From Candidatus Wildermuthbacteria bacterium RIFCSPHIGHO2_02_FULL_45_25 (lineage in GTDB: Bacteria > Patescibacteriota > Minisyncoccia > Minisyncoccales > UBA10102), in the NCBI GenBank assembly GCA_001823215.1, contig MHTV01000042.1, forward strand, positions 1-54,491: a stretch of 54,491 nt of DNA, in the 5' to 3' direction. Numbering within the stretch: position 1 is the stretch's first letter; every line of letters begins with the position of its first letter. Positions 4,643 through 42,480 of this stretch are shown here, piece by piece. Under the pieces are notes generated by a model. The model had not been told where the DNA came from. It was given only the letters and a program-made list of their open reading frames with translations, and made no database searches. The position numbers and the translations under genes are program-made.

Positions 4643-4678
4643 AAACAAACAACTCGCCGCCAGGCGAGTTGTTTGTTT
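4643..4678. terminator. 16-bp hairpin terminator downstream of the 4701-4997 gene
   Basis: aaacaaacaactcgcc-gcca-ggcgagttgtttgttt is a perfect 16-bp stem with T-rich flanks. Confidence 0.55.
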
Positions 4679-6637: not shown

Positions 6638-7024
6638 TTAGCCGGTAATTCCCCTTTTTAATTCCATTTCCTCAAGTTCTTGATCATCATACCCTTTATG
6701 ATGGGCGATTTCATGCCAGATTACGTCTTTGATCACTTCACGGATTGACTTGGCGCATTCTGCCGCGTACTGCTCGATCGCTGTTTGAAAAAGCGTAATT
6801 TTATCGGGAAGCGTAATACTTAATCCCTTTCCCCATGTGGTTTCAGGCACACCCTCATACAAACCCATGAGCATATTTCCGTGGCGCACGCCCGTTTTTT
6901 GCATTTGTTCTGGCGTGGGAATTTCCTCCACGCAAATTGCGACATTCTCCAGACGAATACTTGTTTCGTTGGTAAATTCTTCGGCGATTTGATCTGCCAA
7001 GTTGTGAAATTCTTTTTGATCCAT
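6638..7024 (-). CDS. zincin-like metallopeptidase family protein (Zincin_1/DUF1025-like)
   Basis: HEIAHH motif near the C-terminus in an acidic small protein. I prefer the ATG at 7024 (MDQKEF..., AAGGA 4 nt upstream). The track start at 7072 is a GTG lying inside the left arm of the repeat at 7031-7192. Confidence 0.75.
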   Translation of the reverse strand: MDQKEFHNLADQIAEEFTNETSIRLENVAICVEEIPTPEQMQKTGVRHGNMLMGLYEGVPETTWGKGLSITLPDKITLFQTAIEQYAAECAKSIREVIKDVIWHEIAHHKGYDDQELEEMELKRGITG

Positions 7025-7030
7025 ATATTC

Positions 7031-7192
7031 CTTTGAATTACGAAACCAGCACATATAAGGTTTTGAGAACACGGATATGTTTCTGCTGAAACATTCCTGG
7101 TGCTCCCCCTTCCACCTTGCGGTGAGGGGCTCGCGCCAGTCGCGCTCCCAACGTTCTCTAATCCTTGTATGCGCTGGTTTCGTAATTCAAAG
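7031..7192 (+). repeat. hairpin-embedded conserved-core element, copy A (40-nt inverted arms + 82-nt core)
   Basis: Arms 7031-7070 and 7153-7192 are reverse complements (36 of 40). The core 7071-7152 (acggatatgtttctgctgaaacattcc...cagtcgcgctcccaac) recurs at 36086-36170 and, shortened and inverted, at 31193-31247. Confidence 0.8.
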
Positions 7193-7262: not shown

Positions 7263-7697
7263 TCACAAAAAATCTACCACTTGCGCCGCGCCGATGAAGC
7301 GTACCAGATCCTCGACGCTTGCCCATAACTCTTCCAGCGTCCGGGGGTCGCTCCGCATGTTTTCCTCGTCAGGCATGAGCTTCCATGCAAGATACGTCTC
7401 ATCCCCATAGAAATACCCGGGTACCTCAATAAACTTCCATGGGGCTTTACCTGCACGAAGGATATTGTATCCGTAGATGATGATTTTGAGGAAATTCAGA
7501 GCTTCTTGCGGGGTTTGCGCGATGTCAATCGCACAGAAAGGAACATGCGACTTATGTATTTCATCCACATGTCCCTCGCATGAACCGACCGTTCTCACCT
7601 CCATTTGATGCAGAGCCAGAACAAGCGGCCTGATGTGGGGATCCAAAGCGTCATATACGCTTTTGGATAATGTCCCCGGTAGTGTTTGGTTTCCCAT
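7263..7697 (-). CDS. hypothetical protein
   Basis: 144-aa ORF with normal composition and its own terminator. No family recognised. Confidence 0.55.
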   Translation of the reverse strand: MGNQTLPGTLSKSVYDALDPHIRPLVLALHQMEVRTVGSCEGHVDEIHKSHVPFCAIDIAQTPQEALNFLKIIIYGYNILRAGKAPWKFIEVPGYFYGDETYLAWKLMPDEENMRSDPRTLEELWASVEDLVRFIGAAQVVDFL

Positions 7698-8376: not shown

Positions 8377-8410
8377 AAAAAAGGGTAGGAGATATCTCCT
8401 ACCCTTTTTT
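8377..8410. terminator. bidirectional hairpin terminator
   Basis: aaaaaa-gggtaggagat/atctcctaccc-tttttt, an 11-bp stem flanked by A6 and T6. Confidence 0.7.
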
Positions 8411-12632: not shown

Positions 12633-12798
12633 ACGTTGAGCAATCTCTCAATATCCGATGTACCGAATTTGACACAGAGGATATCAACTGCTTGTGCTTG
12701 TAGCATGGCCTCTCCTTTTGACCAGTTCCCTTCAAGGGTACCACTATTGTATCCGAGCTATGCGCATTGTCAACAACAATACATAAAAAATATATTGG

Positions 12799-17800: not shown

Positions 17801-17940
17801 ATTGTAATGTGAATAACTAGCTATTGACGGTATCTAACTCAACTGCTACCATACAAATGGAATTGACACCGTCTCGAACTGTCGCAATCCAATGCGGCGT
17901 TCCCGCAAGGGATAGAGCCGGTGTTTTGTTTTTACTCTTC

Positions 17941-29750: not shown

Positions 29751-31148
29751 TTACATCGTTCGCTTTGTTGACCCCACAAAGCGAAAATCTTTTATTTTCA
29801 TCGCTGGCACAACCGTCCCCGAAGGCATGCCTGCACTCATGGGATCAAATACCAGACGCGAAGGCCCCATCATTTCTACGCGTTTGAGAGCTTCAGGAAT
29901 AATCTCCTCAAAGCGCACATTTTCCATACACTGGCTCACCTTTCCTTTTTCTATCAAAAATACTCCGTGTTGCGCAATACCTGTCATGGTCGCAGTCTGA
30001 AAATGCTTCATTCCCAGATAGTGAAGTTTGGTAATCCACAAAGTCGGCTGCTGGCAGGAATCGATCATTTCCTCCAACGAACTTTTCCCGCCTTCCACCA
30101 CAAGGTTGAAAGGAGCAGCGCCTTCGGCTCGTTGAGAGGGTGGCAATGCGTTACCCGTGGATTCTTTGCCCAACCTTCGCGCCAATTCGCTGTCGTACAG
30201 TGCGTTCATAATTCGTCCCTTTTGCGCAAGCATAACCTGACTGCGCGGCATTCCTTCAAAATCAAACGGCACGGCTATTCCCTGTAATCTTGAATCCAAC
30301 GGATTGTCTGAAATGTCTATATTCTTACCCAGAAGTTCTTGTCCGATCTTTTTTGAAATAAAACTCTCTCCGCGTTCCACCATTAGTCCATTAAAGCCAA
30401 AGAAACCCAGCCAATCAAAAATCGGCTCCAAAAAATAGGGTTCAAGAATCACATCCATGCGCAAATCGTTTCCTTCCCGCAGTTTTTCAAAAATATCTCC
30501 CTTTGGCAGTTGGCGCTGAAGCTCACATTTACTTATGAGTTCTTGAGACACTCTTTCCAAATCAAGTGATTCAAAAGATGATCCTCCTGTATTGGCATAC
30601 GCAGAAATCGAAGCATCTTTCAAATCAAAACTGAAAAAACCGCTTCCCACGAGCGTATATACGCACGACTGCGCGCTTCCAATCGAATTCATATAATATA
30701 TTTCCCCGCGCCCAGCAGTTATCTTGCCAGATAAAATCAGCCCTTTCGCTTCCAACGCAGAATTTAATTGTAGAACAACTTCGAGCAGTCTGGAATCTTC
30801 TAGTAGAGCAGTTTCTTCGTCAAAGGAGTTTGCGACGCACTGGGCTTTTTCAAAAACTTGCCTTGGAAGAGTAATCTCATGCTCGGGCAAAAACTTGAGA
30901 TATTCCAAGGATTTTTCAATCATGCGTTCAGCCAGCAAAGGGTTATCAAAAGTTATGCTTTTTCTTCGTTTCCCCTTTACGATTGCCATATCAACCCCCC
31001 AGCTTTCTTCAGCTGGCGGCTGATCTACCTGTCCGCGTCGAAGACGTTTGAGAAGAAACTCATTCTTAAAAACTGCGACTTCGCAAAAGTCAACTTTTTT
31101 CTTCGTTGCGATATCCAATATATGTTGAGCGATTTGTTGAGTGTCCAT
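29751..31148 (-). CDS. pmbA: PmbA/TldE-family metalloprotease subunit
   Basis: TldD/PmbA fold pattern without the HExxxH motif. The start is set at MDTQQIAQ (31148), because the upstream part of the 577-aa track ORF reads through the repeat at 31161-31279. Confidence 0.85.
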   Translation of the reverse strand: MDTQQIAQHILDIATKKKVDFCEVAVFKNEFLLKRLRRGQVDQPPAEESWGVDMAIVKGKRRKSITFDNPLLAERMIEKSLEYLKFLPEHEITLPRQVFEKAQCVANSFDEETALLEDSRLLEVVLQLNSALEAKGLILSGKITAGRGEIYYMNSIGSAQSCVYTLVGSGFFSFDLKDASISAYANTGGSSFESLDLERVSQELISKCELQRQLPKGDIFEKLREGNDLRMDVILEPYFLEPIFDWLGFFGFNGLMVERGESFISKKIGQELLGKNIDISDNPLDSRLQGIAVPFDFEGMPRSQVMLAQKGRIMNALYDSELARRLGKESTGNALPPSQRAEGAAPFNLVVEGGKSSLEEMIDSCQQPTLWITKLHYLGMKHFQTATMTGIAQHGVFLIEKGKVSQCMENVRFEEIIPEALKRVEMMGPSRLVFDPMSAGMPSGTVVPAMKIKDFRFVGSTKRTM

Positions 31149-31160
31149 AGTAAGCCAAAG

Positions 31161-31279
31161 ATAGGGGGAATAAAGAACGCGCATCTGGGAACCTTGCGAG
31201 CGCGACTGGCGTGAGCACGAGGAATTTTTCAGCAGAAAAATATCCGCGTTCCCAGATGCGCGTTCTTTATTCCCCCTAT
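31161..31279 (-). repeat. hairpin-embedded conserved-core element, copy C (32-nt perfect arms + 55-nt short core, inverted orientation)
   Basis: Arms 31161-31192 and 31248-31279 are perfect reverse complements. The reverse complement of the core (gcggatatttttctgctgaaaaattcctcgtgctcacgccagtcgcgctcgcaagg) matches copies A and B but lacks their internal CCCC/GGGG hairpin. Confidence 0.8.
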
Positions 31280-32781
31280 CCCACCGACCCGACCTGAATA
31301 TCCGTGAAATACGCGGGCGAAGATCCATGCCCCGTATGCATTGTCTGCAAAGGATCCGCTTTCCCGCACGATCCCACTCCCTGAAGAAAGAAACTCTTCT
31401 CGTTGCACACCTCCTGACAATTTCTCCAAAAATGCAGATTATCGCCGTAATACTTTGCGTTCTTGCGCACCTCCCATTTCCCATTTACTTTTTCCCACGC
31501 AATCTCCGAACCAAAACTAAAATGCCTTCTCACGTCATCAATGCTCCAGCTCTTATTCGTGCCAAACATCATTGTTCCGTCAGCTACCGAATTTTTCAAC
31601 TCTTCAAAATCTTTTTTGCCTGGTTTTAAGATAATATTCACCATGCGGATAACCGGCCAACTTCCATAACTTTCTCCTCGCATTGCGCCCGAAGAGTGTC
31701 GAAAATACTCATACCCAATTGCTTTGTTTAATTGCGGAACCGTTTCTCTTGAAGTAAGCAACCCTTTCCAAATTCCGTTTTCCACCAACGGAATCTTTTG
31801 CGCGGGAGTGCCTTCATCATCGTACCCGTATGTTCCCACTCCGGTTGGCGTTACGCTATCGGCCATCAACGTTATTTTTTCAGAACCAAAGATAAATTTT
31901 CCGATTTCAGGCAACAAAGGAGTGAGAAAACTCCCACCGGCCAATGTCCATTCTGTTCCCAACACCCGATCCGCTTCTAATCCATGCGCGGTTTCATGTC
32001 CATGCAAATTCAACTGCGACGGCAACACAATAATACCCCTGCGGCCTGCCGGAGCATAAGGAGCATCCAGCAGTTCTGCCGCTTCCTTGGCGATCACCGC
32101 GGCATGATGCGCCAAATCCAATTTTTGCACCAATTCATGCCCGCCCTGCATAAAGTACAAATGCGAATCAGGGTACGATCTCCTTTGCGTATCCCCACTT
32201 GCCTCCTTTATCGCATGCGCCTGTGCCGCGGCTCCCGTCTCCACGATGGTTTGATCGGTTCTCACCCCTTCACTGGAAGCAAAAAGCTTTCGGGTGCGAA
32301 TCGCGGAATACTCGCAGGCGCGCCAGAAAATTTTCTCTGAAACCTGCCGCATTGCCTCATCCGCGGAAGCGAGCAACACGATTTTCTGATCCAGAGAAAC
32401 CGAAAAGGGATCAATTTCCATCGGCGTTTGATACACGGCAATATATCCGGTCTGCCATTGCTCCGCTCGAGCAGCCAGCGTTACCTTCTCTTTTTGCAGA
32501 ATACTATTTGCCTGCGCGCTTTTGATCGCTCGTTCCACCACGTAGGAAATTTTCTCTTTTTCCAAGAGCGGGCTTGCAAAAAATCCCCAACTGCCATTCA
32601 CCAATACCCTTACGCCAAAACCCGCGCTTTGCGAAGAATTCAACGCAGAAATCGCGCCATTTTCAACTTTCAGATGTTCTTCAATACGATCTGCAAGCAA
32701 TCTGCAATCCGCGTATTCCGCTCCTTTTTTCTTGGCATGCCAAAGCGATTCTTCTAAAAATGTTTGCCATTGAGGTTCCAT
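31276..32781 (-). CDS. tldD: TldD-family metalloprotease
   Basis: HETAHGLEAD metal-binding motif and TldD length. The start is set at MEPQWQTF (32781), which avoids overlap with the HIT gene. Confidence 0.9.
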   Translation of the reverse strand: MEPQWQTFLEESLWHAKKKGAEYADCRLLADRIEEHLKVENGAISALNSSQSAGFGVRVLVNGSWGFFASPLLEKEKISYVVERAIKSAQANSILQKEKVTLAARAEQWQTGYIAVYQTPMEIDPFSVSLDQKIVLLASADEAMRQVSEKIFWRACEYSAIRTRKLFASSEGVRTDQTIVETGAAAQAHAIKEASGDTQRRSYPDSHLYFMQGGHELVQKLDLAHHAAVIAKEAAELLDAPYAPAGRRGIIVLPSQLNLHGHETAHGLEADRVLGTEWTLAGGSFLTPLLPEIGKFIFGSEKITLMADSVTPTGVGTYGYDDEGTPAQKIPLVENGIWKGLLTSRETVPQLNKAIGYEYFRHSSGAMRGESYGSWPVIRMVNIILKPGKKDFEELKNSVADGTMMFGTNKSWSIDDVRRHFSFGSEIAWEKVNGKWEVRKNAKYYGDNLHFWRNCQEVCNEKSFFLQGVGSCGKADPLQTMHTGHGSSPAYFTDIQVGSVG

Positions 32782-34731: not shown

Positions 34732-35226
34732 ATGACTGCAACTACTCAAGCAAAACCAATTATCCTTATTATTGGAATCCCGGATCAAGAAACCGCAAAG
34801 AGAATAACCGAGTTCGGCAAAAAACGCGGCAAGAAATATCGTTATGCCGTGCTTCATAATACAGAACCTGTATCTAATTTGGACCGCGAAATTTTCTCGT
34901 ATTTTGATATCAAGATAATTTGCGATGTCGCTTCAGACCAAGCTATTCAGCGATCACTCGATCCCTATCGAGAAGAGTTGATCGCCGTTACCGTTCCGCG
35001 CGCGGAAAAATATATCCCATGGCTTCAACGCATTATCCCCCACGTTCCCAATCTCAAAACTCCAACTGTCGAATCCCTTGCTTGGGCAACAAGTAAAATC
35101 CAGATGAGAGAACGCATGCAAGATTATGACAAAAAAACTCTGCCCCGCATTTATGATTGTTCAGAATGCGAATGCGAAAACACTCAAGCAAATCGAAGAT
35201 GCTATTGGATTTCCTATGATTATTAA
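34732..35226 (+). CDS. ATP-grasp paralog 2, N-terminal part (frameshift at an A7 run)
   Basis: It aligns with residues about 1-135 of paralog 1 and diverges into nonsense after DYDKK at the A7 run (35131-35137). Confidence 0.7.
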   Translation: MTATTQAKPIILIIGIPDQETAKRITEFGKKRGKKYRYAVLHNTEPVSNLDREIFSYFDIKIICDVASDQAIQRSLDPYREELIAVTVPRAEKYIPWLQRIIPHVPNLKTPTVESLAWATSKIQMRERMQDYDKKTLPRIYDCSECECENTQANRRCYWISYDY

Positions 35227-36019
35227 GCCGACTGGTTTGGCGGCTTCTCTGCTTGTGAATATCGCTTTCCATAAAGATGAGCTTGAAATATCTTTGCATC
35301 GTATATTTCGCAAAATCCACGCCCAATACAAAAAATGGGAAGGCCGAGGAGAACCTCAAGTGCTTGTGGAACAATTTATGGAAGGAGAAATGTATTCCAT
35401 TGATTGCTATGTTAGCTCGAGCGGGAAAATATATTATTGTCCTTTGGTACATGTAAAAACCGGACGAAGCATTGGATTTGATGATTTCTTTGGATATCAG
35501 CAAATTACCCCAACCATGTTGCGTCCGGAGAATATAAAAAAAGCTAGAGAGTGCGCGCATAAAGCAATCCGCGCGCTCGCTCTGTTCAACACAACCGCGC
35601 ATATCGAACTCATGCGAACCGAACACGGCTGGAAGATTATCGAGCTTGGCCCCCGCATGGGCGGTTTTCGCGATTTAATGTACCAGCTTTCGTATGGGTT
35701 CAATCATACGCAAAATGACATTGCGAATCGTACAGGCCAACGGCCCAAGCTCTCTCGCAAAGTTCTGGGCTATACCGCGTCCCTTAAACTTTTCGCGCGC
35801 AAAGAAGGAGTAATTACCAATCTTCTCGGGATCAAAAAAGTGCAGGAGCTCGAATCCTTCCATTCCATGGAGCAAAACTCCAAAATTGGAGACAAGGCAA
35901 TCTTCGCAAAGCACGGCGGGAAAAGCGTCTTTAATATCTTTCTTTTCAACAAGGAACGCTCGAATCTGCTGGCGGATATCCGCCGCCTTGAACAAACTGT
36001 AAGCATCGAAACTGCGTAG
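35126..36019 (+). CDS. ATP-grasp paralog 2, catalytic C-terminal part
   Basis: It aligns with paralog 1 from KTLKQIEDAIGFPMIIKPTGLAASL to the end, and the frame joins 34732-35137 if one A is removed. Confidence 0.75.
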   Translation: MTKKLCPAFMIVQNANAKTLKQIEDAIGFPMIIKPTGLAASLLVNIAFHKDELEISLHRIFRKIHAQYKKWEGRGEPQVLVEQFMEGEMYSIDCYVSSSGKIYYCPLVHVKTGRSIGFDDFFGYQQITPTMLRPENIKKARECAHKAIRALALFNTTAHIELMRTEHGWKIIELGPRMGGFRDLMYQLSYGFNHTQNDIANRTGQRPKLSRKVLGYTASLKLFARKEGVITNLLGIKKVQELESFHSMEQNSKIGDKAIFAKHGGKSVFNIFLFNKERSNLLADIRRLEQTVSIETA

Positions 36020-36052: not shown

Positions 36053-36203
36053 ATGTCATGTATTTTTGCCATCGGATTTTGAGAGCACGGATATTTTTCT
36101 GCTGAAAAATTCCTCGTACTCCCCCTACCACTCGTGGCGAGGGGCTCGCGCGTCAGTCGCGCTCCCAAGTCTCTCAAAATCCGATGGCAAAAATGCATGA
36201 CAT
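36053..36203 (+). repeat. hairpin-embedded conserved-core element, copy B (33-nt arms + 85-nt core)
   Basis: Arms 36053-36085 and 36171-36203 are reverse complements with one mismatch. The core 36086-36170 matches copy A with compensatory changes in its first hairpin. Confidence 0.8.
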
Positions 36204-36206
36204 CGC

Positions 36207-37130
36207 TTACTCCCCTTCATGAAATCGAAAGTACGCAAGAATTCCATTTACCACTCCTTGCGCGGCAAGTTGTGGCTTATCAATCAAAATTTGCCTATCA
36301 ACGGAATTTGACAGGAAACCTGCTTCCAGAATCACAGCAGGAGTTCCGGGCGCAAGCGCATTGGCAAATTTTTCATAATTGAACGCGTAATAATGAGTCA
36401 TGGCAGGTGGAATATACTCGTCAATAGGAAGGTTTGTTGCCTTGCCGTACTCTTCCTCAATCAATGCCGCAAGATTGTTCCCTTCTCCCTTGTCCCACCA
36501 TGGAGCCGCTATTTTAAATCCGGAATCTTTGCGCGGAGAATTTCCATCGGCATGAATAGCAATAAAAGCATCTGCCGTGTAGTTCGGCGGGATAACGGTT
36601 GGCAAAAGTTCCGTGCGTATGCCCTCCTTATCTAAGAGCATGGCAATATGCCAAGCGATCATATAATTTACCTGCCATTCCATCTTCCCGCCTCCGGAAG
36701 CTCCATGATTATCTTCAAGCCGCGACAACTCTTCCGGGACCTCATCGTTTTTCCAGTGTCCAATCTGAATTCCCACCTTCCATTCTTTCGCAACCGAAGT
36801 CGGCTGAACCGAAAAACGCGCCGAAGGCAACGGCAAAGGTTGTATGGATAAGGTTGGCGCGGGCGAGATGATCTGCAACGCCCGAGGAGTTTGGGATGGC
36901 ACCGCCGGAAAGACGGTCAAAATTGGAATTTCAGGTACCTCATCTGAACTCTTTCCATGATACTCCAAACGAGTATCATCAGAAGCAGAAGTGATTTTTT
37001 CTTCAAAAGCTTGCTCATCCCAATCCACACCTCCAACTCTATTTGCCGCAAACAGATATCCAACTCCGCAAAGTCCGATACAAACAACAGCCCATGCGGT
37101 CTTTTTTTGTTCAAAAAAACGTTTGAACAT
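36207..37130 (-). CDS. N-acetylmuramoyl-L-alanine amidase (Amidase_3) with N-terminal anchor
   Basis: N-terminal TM, then KVGIQIGHW..., DAFIAIHADGN and EAGFLSN motifs typical of MurNAc-LAA amidases. Confidence 0.8.
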   Translation of the reverse strand: MFKRFFEQKKTAWAVVCIGLCGVGYLFAANRVGGVDWDEQAFEEKITSASDDTRLEYHGKSSDEVPEIPILTVFPAVPSQTPRALQIISPAPTLSIQPLPLPSARFSVQPTSVAKEWKVGIQIGHWKNDEVPEELSRLEDNHGASGGGKMEWQVNYMIAWHIAMLLDKEGIRTELLPTVIPPNYTADAFIAIHADGNSPRKDSGFKIAAPWWDKGEGNNLAALIEEEYGKATNLPIDEYIPPAMTHYYAFNYEKFANALAPGTPAVILEAGFLSNSVDRQILIDKPQLAAQGVVNGILAYFRFHEGE

Positions 37131-39825: not shown

Positions 39826-39922
39826 ATCTTTATCTTAGCATATCTATTTGTATCTGCGCTTGGCTAAAGCATTGACTGTGGATTCAATGGAGTTCATTGG
39901 AACGGCAAGTCAAAACTATTCT

Positions 39923-40732
39923 CTACAAGATTTTCCGTACAATACTCCTCCCCAGCACCGCAAGAATAAGCATTCCGGATCCCGTTAGAATAATTGTCGA
40001 ACCCGAAGGAATATCCAGGTAATAGGAAATCAGCAAGCCAATGCCAATCGCAAATTCCCCCGCAATAATACTTAACGTTACAAGTCCGATAAAAGAAGGC
40101 GCTAACAATTTTCCAATGGCGGCCGGGATAATCAGCAACGCGCTCACGAGAATAATTCCAAGAAGCTTCACTCCCAGAACAATCGTAACAGAAAGAAGAA
40201 TATAGAAAAGCAAATTCAGCAATTCGGTGTTCATTCCAGATGTCCACGCAGTCTCCCGATCAAAAGCAATCATGGTGAAATGCCGAGCATACCAGAAAAG
40301 AACACTAAAAATCACCGCGGCAAGGCCAGCAATCACGAGCATATCCGTCTGGGAAATAGCCAAGATATTCCCAAAAAGAAAGGTGATCAGATCGGGCTGG
40401 TACCCATGCTGAAAACTCATAAGCACCACTCCCAAAGCCAAACCGCTTGTAAACAAAACTCCGATCACCACGTCCGAAGATAGATTTGTTTTATGTTCGA
40501 GCGCATATACGCCAATTCCAAAAGCAATTCCAACCGCCAACGCGCCCCAAAAAGGATTCGCGCCTGTTACGATTCCAAGCGCGATTCCCGCCAACGAAGC
40601 GTGCGCGATGCCGTCTCCAAAAAAAGCCATGCGCCGCATACTCACAAAAACTCCCAAAAACGGCAAAATCAATCCTATGGCGATTCCAGCCAGCAGCGCT
40701 CTCTGCATAAAAGCCAATGTAAGAAATTCCAT
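39923..40732 (-). CDS. znuB: metal ABC transporter permease (ABC-3 family)
   Basis: 269 aa with 8-9 TM helices in the ABC-3 pattern, in an operon with an ATPase and a TroA-type binding protein. Confidence 0.85.
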   Translation of the reverse strand: MEFLTLAFMQRALLAGIAIGLILPFLGVFVSMRRMAFFGDGIAHASLAGIALGIVTGANPFWGALAVGIAFGIGVYALEHKTNLSSDVVIGVLFTSGLALGVVLMSFQHGYQPDLITFLFGNILAISQTDMLVIAGLAAVIFSVLFWYARHFTMIAFDRETAWTSGMNTELLNLLFYILLSVTIVLGVKLLGIILVSALLIIPAAIGKLLAPSFIGLVTLSIIAGEFAIGIGLLISYYLDIPSGSTIILTGSGMLILAVLGRSIVRKIL

Positions 40733-42428: not shown

Positions 42429-42480
42429 TCTGGGGATTGGGAACATTGTGCTTGCAAGCACAATGTTCCCAATCCCCAGA
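42429..42480. repeat. 52-nt perfect palindrome (26-bp arms, no loop)
   Basis: tctggggattgggaacattgtgcttg|caagcacaatgttcccaatccccaga is exactly self-complementary. It lies just upstream of the znuA -35. Confidence 0.9.

Follow-up and report, generated by a model that had tools for sequence, protein, structure and literature searches.

A hairpin-forming repeat family of Patescibacteria with a conserved three-way-junction core and locus-specific inverted arms

The window, that is, the whole stretch of DNA analysed here (about 54 kb; 54,491 nucleotides, nt), is a contig of a Candidatus Wildermuthbacteria genome (Parcubacteria) and holds three copies of a short intergenic element, hereafter labelled copies A, B and C. 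Each copy consists of a core of about 56 nt between inverted repeats, or arms, of 33–40 nt that are unique to its locus. This arrangement, a shared core inside copy-specific inverted repeats, had been proposed from the letters of the window (below, the original prediction), and the pattern matches and arm coordinates given here bear it out. The copies belong to a family that is spread over the Patescibacteria and includes in-frame copies in essential genes. We favour, at about an even balance of belief, reading it as a non-autonomous, selfish, hairpin-forming family of mobile DNA that is moved in trans and gains its arms by inverted duplication of adjoining DNA.

Copy A (7031–7192) has the strand that reads GGATAT in the core, hereafter the GGATAT strand, as its plus strand, and lies between the terminator hairpin of an open reading frame (ORF; 7263–7697, minus strand) and the start of the Zincin_1 gene (6638–7024, minus strand). 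The ATG of the latter is at 7024, and the 40-nt left arm of the element (7031–7070), taken here as the native arm, begins inside its AAGGA ribosome-binding site, an overlap that the original prediction had seen. The right arm (7153–7192) is 90% complementary to the left. Between the arms, hairpin H1 (7073–7097, plus strand; GGA-T-ATGTTTC / TGCT / GAAACAT-TCC) is followed by an extra hairpin H3 (7105–7129, plus strand; CCCCCTTCCACC TTGC GGTGAGGGG), which gives a four-way junction, and by hairpin H2 (7132–7145, plus strand; CGCGC CAGT CGCGC type), which sits inside the junction helix TGGTG..CAAC. Copy B (31160–31280, GGATAT strand minus) is the minimal form without H3, and lies between the stop codon of TldD (31276–31278) and the start of PmbA (31148). 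Its two 33-nt arms (31160–31192 and 31248–31280) are perfectly complementary (100%); the second holds the TldD stop codon, is taken as native and stands 5′ of the core on the GGATAT strand. H1 (31221–31245, minus strand; consensus GGATATTTTTCTGCTGAAAAATTCC) and H2 (31200–31213, minus strand; CACGCCAGTCGCGC) complete the copy. Copy C (36053–36203, GGATAT strand plus) separates a convergent pair of genes, encoding an ATP-grasp protein (35126–36019, plus strand) and an amidase (36207–37130, minus strand). Its 33-nt left arm (36053–36085) is matched by a right arm (36171–36203) of 97% complementarity that ends 3 nt short of the amidase stop codon, with H1 at 36089–36113, H3 at 36121–36144 (CCCCCTACCACTCGTGGCGAGGGG) and H2 at 36147–36162 (CGCGCGTCAGTCGCGC), all on the plus strand.

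Within the window, the H1 pattern GGATATKTTTCTGCTGAAAMATTCC matches 7073–7097 (plus), 31221–31245 (minus) and 36089–36113 (plus) only, with 0 matches in 100 shuffles, and a second conserved block, CAGTCGCGCTCSCAA, matches at exactly those three loci. A covariance-model search of the window likewise returned the three known copies and no others. All three fold far more stably than their shuffles on either strand (z from −5.4 to −13.0). As predicted, the arm sequences are unrelated between the three loci, innermost bases excepted, and the inner arm ends of all three fit the single degenerate pattern TYTGRGARC. Two details of the prediction need correction: the inner arm ttttgaga/tctcaaaa, which had been assigned to copies A and B, is common to the first (7031) and third (36053) copies, and the second hairpin, CCCCCT..AGGGG, is real and occurs in copies A (7105–7129) and C (36121–36144), whereas the copy at 31161–31279, to which it had also been ascribed, is without it.

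The family was delimited by scanning one genome per species with the H1 pattern, two variable base pairs of which were left free. The scan returned at least 112 loci in metagenome-assembled genomes of Patescibacteria, comprising Paceibacteria lineages, Saccharibacteria, Uhrbacteria and others; two of these loci come from one bin labelled Gammaproteobacteria, taxonomic labels being taken as given. The conservation of H1 among the scanned loci is partly a matter of ascertainment, the search pattern having fixed most of H1, but the free NN/NN positions are complementary in 55/55 aligned copies. A covariance model built from these 55 copies, a search that the original prediction had proposed, then found about 28 additional copies in 720 kb of other loci, or about one per 26 kb, often in pairs 50–150 nt apart. 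Neighbouring copies at such distances, in the same or opposite orientation, were seen in six comparison loci (L033, L019, L034, L068, L039 and L020), which suggests hot intergenic spots or insertion beside existing copies. Another copy lies within a ribosomal RNA operon, in the spacer between the 3′ end of the 23S rRNA and a tRNA (L005, 5607–5685). The viral contigs scanned contained no copy.

Comparison with Rfam, another check that had been proposed, gave nothing at the elements at the gathering threshold across the whole window, only chance matches below 23 bits for copies A and C at E values up to 10, and no match overlapping the elements in 18 other loci. Neither an Rfam family nor a known insertion-sequence end accounts for them. 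The sole Rfam family in the window is a DUF3800-IX RNA at 17865–17929 (plus strand; 52.5 bits against a gathering score of 36.8). Searches of the literature by topic, nucleotide string and translated peptide found no description of the element, which appears to be an undescribed repeat family, found here only in the ultra-small Patescibacteria (the Candidate Phyla Radiation, CPR).

The core, with consensus cacGGATATTTTTCTGCTGAAAAATTCCtcgtgctcGCGCc(a)gtcGCGCtcgcaag, folds as a three-way junction with H1 and H2 as its hairpins, the latter closed by a short helix. H1 is built of 3 bp, a bulged T, 7 bp and a TGCT loop, and the junction helix around H2, tCgTg..cAaG, contains a conserved G.A mismatch. 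The G:C to T:A double change that the original prediction had noticed in H1 is correct, and H2 varies in the same manner, GCGC/GCGC covarying with GTGC/GCAC, GCTC/GAGC, GCCT/AGGC and GGCT/AGCC. In the 55-sequence alignment, 90.2% of cells are paired as opposed to 75.3% after shuffling (0/500 shuffles reach the real value), 17 pairs are altered on both sides, and slid registers come nowhere near the real pairing. The multiloop of some copies holds extra hairpins, H3 in copies A and C of the window and larger ones as inserts in L021, L036, L040 and L072. In diverged sub-families found in TsaD genes, all the letters of the H1 stem differ (GCA-T-ATCCGCC/TGCT/GGCGGAT-TGC) and the bulged T, the 7-bp stem and the TGCT loop are kept; the conserved features are therefore shape, bulged base and loop, which is the usual mark of a hairpin that is read by a protein. 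With covariation this strong and further copies this numerous, the original idea of a conserved structured centre in the loop of a copy-specific repeat, under selection on RNA or single-stranded DNA (ssDNA) structure, is supported. The covariation proves that the structure forms, but is no proof of selection on RNA, because correction templated by the hairpin would itself yield compensatory-looking changes.

Arms are long in many copies: among 107 that could be scored, they measure at least 12 nt in 79, at least 20 nt in 42 and at least 30 nt in 14, the longest reaching 54 nt. The 12 nt that flank the core follow the pattern TTTnnRGRG|CAC ... CAAGT|CYCYnnAAA. On inspection of the listed copies, the innermost 6–10 nt track the sub-family of the core, for example ..aaatgc with cgtg..caagg, ..tggaca with tagtg..caatg and ..ttttggag with tcaag, and so belong to the element, a point that goes beyond the original prediction; the outer arms are unrelated even within a sub-family. 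They frequently overlap or begin at the stop codons of flanking genes, on either side, and the element with its arms then occupies the whole spacer. No third copies of the arms were found nearby, with the exception of one match, at 12645–12660 inside a distant minus-strand ORF of the window, where 16/17 nt agree with the right arm of copy C at its inner end. Chance would give about 0.001 matches of this kind, and this one could be a coincidence or a trace of where the arm of copy C came from. The absence of third copies speaks against imported arms or a guide role, at least within the window.

Copies also lie inside genes. Fourteen of the 107 copies have an open frame of at least 40 codons to each side, and about ten of these are convincing: PheT is interrupted at the same site in three genomes (L030, L085 and L067), TsaD in the same loop in L029, L057 and L088, GlmM in L055, a UvrD-like helicase in L082 and Dus in L100. 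The loop copies would be translated because five of the six frames of the core are open: the core consensus has stops in only one of them, and all five open frames are used by genic copies. Open frames per copy are modestly enriched (mean 3.09 as opposed to 2.47 in shuffles).

Homologues of two of these proteins show the element coming and going. Among the 120 closest homologues of TsaD, about 20 have a short loop (29–35 residues from PYPGG to PRPM) and about 100 have 20–70 extra residues there. The inserts are the element in various orientations and frames (RLGSATARARGIFQQKNIR, RGLGSATARTRANFQQKIMG, SIAQADEPSIAIRQQANMR, GPNFSAEKFSQSSGRR, TDIFLLKNSSCS, GVSQADGPRGSAPRARGDS and GSLSPRARGALPLGSSACE), and some homologues carry two in tandem. 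As with TsaD, most of 120 homologues of GlmM have an insert, from many sub-families and in both orientations; partial-deletion derivatives occur (P0149, P0165 and P0203), as do empty alleles among homologues 75–77% identical to filled ones. What emerges is gain, divergence, frameshift-tolerant drift and loss, and not the pattern of a sited function.

In the GlmM copy (L055), the outer right arm encodes FPRS, which aligns with PSRGF.SIPHEH of the empty homologue P0134, and the other arm, encoding TSWK, is the reverse complement of the FPRS-coding arm. In the TsaD copy of L057, the conserved FPLP that precedes RPM forms the end of one arm, of which the other arm is an inverted copy. The outer part of one arm is thus native coding sequence in two genes, and the other arm an inverted copy of it, so that the outer arms, again beyond what had been predicted, are at least partly inverted copies of host sequence. 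The arm with the native signal lies 5′ of the core on the GGATAT strand in window copies A (ribosome-binding site) and B (TldD stop codon) and in L055, L057 and L029.

Two TsaD loci (L146 and L147) have homologous arms and a core of the same sub-family in opposite orientation, from which it follows that the core flips or is re-inserted in place. Mismatches between arms are asymmetric: read on the GGATAT strand, 46 are A:C or C:A and 16 are G:T or T:G (p = 1.8 × 10−4), and the bias is the same for either direction of the neighbouring genes (15:5 and 8:2). The process that reads the hairpin hence works on a single strand of the element, namely the one complementary to the GGATAT strand, and not on the mRNA of the neighbours.

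One strain comparison captured change at a single copy. Over 4645 nt, a contig from another sample (L151; ERZ4903137) shows 15 differences from the window: 14 substitutions within copy A (window 7047–7172) and, about 20 nt beyond the copy, a 1-nt indel; the rest of the flanks, about 4.5 kb, is identical. Among the substitutions, a compensatory G:C to A:T change keeps the junction helix paired, and three of those in the arms bring pairing back. In that sample, copies B and C are the same as in the window (one single-nucleotide polymorphism, SNP, in 13.6 kb), and other strains that carry SNPs in murC have the window allele of copy A. General hypervariability between strains was rejected on these grounds, only one allele of copy A being different; the L151 allele resembles the outcome of one burst, or a short conversion tract with the element at its centre. 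Elsewhere in the window, short highly divergent tracts in a near-identical background, at about 35156–35347 and at 39909–40219, set another strain (L158) apart. This mosaic looks like recombination and touches, among others, the ATP-grasp gene beside copy C; copy C itself is unchanged. A metagenome scan for PmbA in search of an empty orthologous site led to a nearest relative of 53% identity, in which the spacer between TldD and PmbA is 22 nt long and without the element, a relative too distant to define an insertion.

If the element is mobile DNA of the kind we favour, the transposable unit would measure about 75 nt, with a sub-family-specific terminal inverted repeat of 6–10 bp (TTTnnRGRG ... 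CYCYnnAAA) around the core of about 56 nt. The core, folded as a single strand, would be recognised in trans by a structure-specific enzyme encoded by the host, our first guess being an ssDNA transposase or recombinase. At or after insertion, adjoining host sequence would be copied in inverted form to the other side of the core, by snap-back or template-switch synthesis, leaving the core at the tip of a long, near-perfect, locus-specific hairpin. Templated correction within the hairpin would maintain the complementarity of the arms, and the core would flip or be replaced between arms that persist. Copies would survive where they do no harm, that is, in short intergenic spacers, whose gap they often fill exactly, and in surface loops of proteins. 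In favour of this reading we count the spread and copy number of the family, the want of a linked gene or promoter, the conserved fold, the locus-specific outer arms, the gain and loss in gene loops, the native arms with their inverted counterparts, the reversed core in L146 and L147, the strand-specific mismatches and the many open frames.

Several observations weigh against this proposal. No transposase or recombinase could be tied to the element in the window or in the 112 loci of 8 kb, where the protein clusters adjoining the copies show no enriched family, no transposase-like cluster and no recombinase or integrase nearby. No insertion polymorphism was seen between near-identical genomes, all related strains examined having all three window copies. 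There is no direct target-site duplication outside the arms, the longest direct repeats being no longer than in a control with unrelated flanks. The argument from native arms draws on two genes and two window copies, and stop codons counted in the arms (9 left, 6 right) differ too little for significance and do not confirm that the native arm is always on one side. The core is conserved across classes of Patescibacteria with compensatory changes, as a host-functional RNA would be. Finally, in the outer arms A tends to abound on the 5′ side and T on the 3′ side (40 against 10; p = 4 × 10−5), a polarity shared by the natural terminator hairpins of these genomes, and empty TsaD alleles retain a weak inverted repeat of 10–12 nt, AAGGAAAAAT..ATTTTTCTTTT, where filled alleles have outer arms; some arms may be pre-existing hairpins rather than duplications.

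The last two points lead to the strongest competing explanation, which we regard as credible if somewhat improbable. Here the mobile unit is the same, but its arms are not of its own making: it would home into the tip, or dyad centre, of existing hairpins and palindromes, such as bidirectional terminators or chance repeats, and cores would turn over between the arms. Both the terminator-like polarity and the repeat in empty TsaD alleles fit this, as does the way in which many sub-families strike identical loops in both orientations. Relatives of the element, described below as class 2, interrupt tRNA genes in the T loop, likewise the tip of a hairpin. Perfect palindromes without a core occur in the window as well. 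Two of them (8377–8410 and 4643–4678) are A-tract/T-tract hairpins behind genes, with arms of 17 nt and 16 nt, and long bidirectional terminator-like hairpins are common in Patescibacteria loci generally (65 with arms of at least 16 nt in 852 kb). The third (42429–42480), situated between divergent genes, is a perfect palindrome of 26+26 nt whose halves adjoin without a spacer, and its centre, GTGCTTG|CAAGCAC, equals the 3′ end of the core (CAAG) joined to its 5′ end (CAC), plus the mirror image; this single case could be an excision footprint or an unoccupied target. Against homing into tips, the GlmM allele L166, which is empty, forms no hairpin there (−5 kcal/mol), yet a filled homologue 77% identical to it has 29-nt arms, and the 28-nt arms of the TsaD copy of L057 are without counterpart in the nearest empty homologues. 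Many arms are not terminator-like, those of window copies A and B among them, and pre-existing perfect palindromes of 30–50 nt in coding loops are implausible. Inverted duplication is ranked first because it is the only route that explains long arms inside coding loops; both routes may operate.

A second alternative is that the element is a structured RNA with a function for its host, either a cis-acting element of processing, stability or translation or a small RNA. Its stem would serve as a substrate of RNase III type or sequester the neighbouring ribosome-binding site, and its junction would bind a protein. We consider this unlikely, and keep it alive because the shape is conserved across classes. 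The covariation in H1, H2 and the junction helix, the shape that persists when all the letters change, the conserved G.A mismatch, bulged base and tetraloop, the preference of wobble-type mismatches for one strand and the arm of copy A over a ribosome-binding site would all suit such an RNA. The same strand bias, however, is independent of the direction in which neighbours are transcribed. Orientation relative to flanking genes is mixed across the family, as the original prediction had noted for the window copies (18 copies scored '<<', 10 '>>', 8 convergent and 5 divergent). No consistent promoter or terminator consensus was found in the copies, and the core is without a promoter. Copies stand in frame and in both orientations in TsaD, GlmM, PheT, the UvrD-like helicase and Dus, where a cut would be the end of essential mRNAs; alleles that are empty or have lost part of the element are common, and no gene is consistently associated. 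It is on account of the missing linked gene and promoter, the mixed orientations, the in-frame survival in protein loops and the frequent decay that a cis-regulatory or small-RNA function is disfavoured.

Less probable still is a site that acts at the level of DNA, be it a small invertible switch or a cruciform or hairpin to which a protein of the nucleoid, of replication or of recombination binds, with the locus a local hotspot of recombination or variation. The opposite cores between homologous arms in L146 and L147 fit a switch, an orientation-independent function would fit the mixed orientations, the concentration of the L151 differences in copy A (14/15) fits a hotspot, and long perfect arms favour cruciform extrusion. 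But copies B and C in the sample of L151 and copy A in other strains are unchanged, so that hypervariability is not general, and a segment of 55–85 nt is too short for classical recombinase-driven inversion. No recombinase was found near the copies. Placement in coding loops and decay by deletion resemble tolerated insertions more than functions tied to a site.

Very improbable, finally, is that the copies are remnants of integrase-driven integrative elements, as attL/attR scars or miniature derivatives. The thought comes from the class-2 form of the element (GTCAC-H1-GCGACCCCGCC...), seen 20–130 nt downstream of tRNA genes in six loci (L031, 6595–6780; L017, 1040–1290; L023; L049; L070; L110). 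It is followed by a direct copy of 18–19 nt of the tRNA 3′ end, starting in the T loop, which is the classic footprint of integration into tRNA genes, and it has inverted arms of 8–11 nt too. One further locus (L107) holds two tandem class-2 copies about 180 nt apart, each bounded by the direct repeat TTAAYTCAACYT. The class-1 copies, including the three of the window, are instead flanked by inverted repeats and have no tRNA neighbour; a direct repeat of a tRNA 3′ end is confined to the class-2 relatives. Moreover, copies number tens per megabase at many unrelated sites and are only 75–170 nt long, each of the different tRNAs used has a repeat that matches it, and no integrase gene was seen nearby.

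Further candidates were dropped: hammerhead, twister and pistol ribozymes, for want of core motifs and of an Rfam match; CRISPR or omega-RNA guides, as the arms pair with each other and no nuclease is linked; a retron msr/msd, as there is no reverse transcriptase; and the target of a diversity-generating retroelement, as the changes are not adenine-specific.

The element leaves its mark on annotation and assembly. ORF calls run through it: PmbA is called at 525 residues, overlapping TldD, in L160 (1408–2985), the true start being window position 31148, in agreement with the 53%-identical relative L113, and the zincin gene is called at 138 or 146 residues (L153, 2080–2496; L155, 3–443) instead of 128. 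Contigs start or end within the element in L027, L045, L050, L052 and L154–L156, those of L155 and L156 beginning in H1 of copy A, which shows that the repeat disrupts short-read assemblies. The insertions of 25–45 residues in TsaD, GlmM and PheT bear on structure prediction, phylogenetic markers and protein alignments of Patescibacteria. The family is also a test case for the trust placed in covariation: hairpin-templated correction could pass for selection on RNA structure.

More speculatively, the family may betray an undescribed system of transposition or recombination in Patescibacteria. A host enzyme would move an ssDNA three-way-junction module of about 75 nt, copy adjoining DNA in inverted form, build palindromes and write insertions of 25–45 residues into essential proteins, and the same chemistry would flip or replace cores and occasionally rewrite a copy in a burst, as in L151. 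We hold this fuller version as a tentative possibility, well short of even. If it is true, a mechanism that duplicates its target in inverted form about a conserved centre would be without described counterpart, and arms that arise in this way would make the element a natural generator of long palindromes, of relevance to genome stability under reduced repair. The family marks a superphylum that holds a large share of bacterial diversity, and its architecture, the reverse of that of miniature inverted-repeat transposable elements (MITEs) and REPINs, means that the enzyme behind it may be new.

Judged by analogy, the element behaves most like the Rickettsia palindromic elements (RPE), and its chemistry is likely to be closest to that of the REP/REPIN–RAYT system, of hairpin recognition by IS200/IS605 or of integron attC sites. 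RPE are reportedly non-coding hairpin repeats of about 100–150 bp in Rickettsia, both intergenic and in frame in genes. Similar to RPE, the element is a short non-coding hairpin repeat of reduced genomes that lies in frame in essential genes and beside or inside RNA genes, with no transposase known. RPE copies, however, are alike over their full length, termini included, whereas here only the centre and 6–10 nt of the arms are conserved; the host phylum is another, the core is a three-way junction with covariation, and the element is not known to be related to RPE in sequence.

With the REP and REPIN sequences moved by RAYT, an HUH transposase of the Y1 type, the element has in common that it is a non-autonomous hairpin repeat, thought to be single-stranded when recognised by its shape and a few bases, mobilised in trans, long-persisting and able to form long hairpins. 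In REPINs the arms, two REPs, are conserved and the loop is free; here it is the reverse. REPs have a GTAG or CGTC head, whereas the arms of the element are locus-specific, and no RAYT gene was seen near the copies in the window or the 8-kb loci. The IS200/IS605-derived miniature elements (PATEs), with the subterminal hairpins that TnpA binds, resemble it in the strand-specific ssDNA intermediate proposed for it, in imperfect hairpins that serve for recognition and bear an extrahelical T and a loop of set form, in the lack of target duplication and in two hairpins within a short element. They differ in that the element has no defined tetranucleotide target or cleavage site and no TnpA/TnpB partner, and flanking inverted duplications are not known from PATEs. 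Integron attC sites also conserve structure over sequence and share strand specificity, extrahelical bases, internal unpaired spacers and copy-specific stems. Their base is conserved (R boxes) and their tip variable, whereas in the element the tip is conserved and the base variable: the base, where attC sites carry R″/R′ (RYYYAAC ... GTTRRRY), is unique to each locus, inner ends of the form YRRRAAC/GTTYYYR occur in only two copies, there are no cassette arrays and no IntI nearby, and the window copies lie between housekeeping genes.

Other systems offer partial likenesses. IS1397 and ISKpn1, which enter REP loops, and group IIC introns, which enter terminator stem-loops, also associate with a host hairpin in a harmless position, but these are autonomous, of kilobase size and equipped with their own enzymes, as opposed to a unit of about 75 nt in which at least some hairpins arise from host sequence after insertion. 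BOX, ERIC and Correia/NEMIS repeats are small, modular, hairpin-forming and intergenic, with optional hairpin modules as with H3 here; they have conserved termini, usually target duplications (TA in Correia) and genus-specific distributions, unlike the variable termini and the spread over classes of a superphylum found here. The contrast to classical MITEs drawn in the original prediction stands: the outer 10–45 nt are unique to each locus, the inner 6–10 nt are degenerate and sub-family-specific, and target-site duplications are absent. Set beside invertons, whose invertible segment carries a promoter and is served by a recombinase, the element was seen in both orientations between homologous arms across genomes, with no promoter in the core and no recombinase nearby. 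Taken together, the element is a kind of small palindromic repeat with an inverted architecture, in which the centre is conserved and the arms are local.

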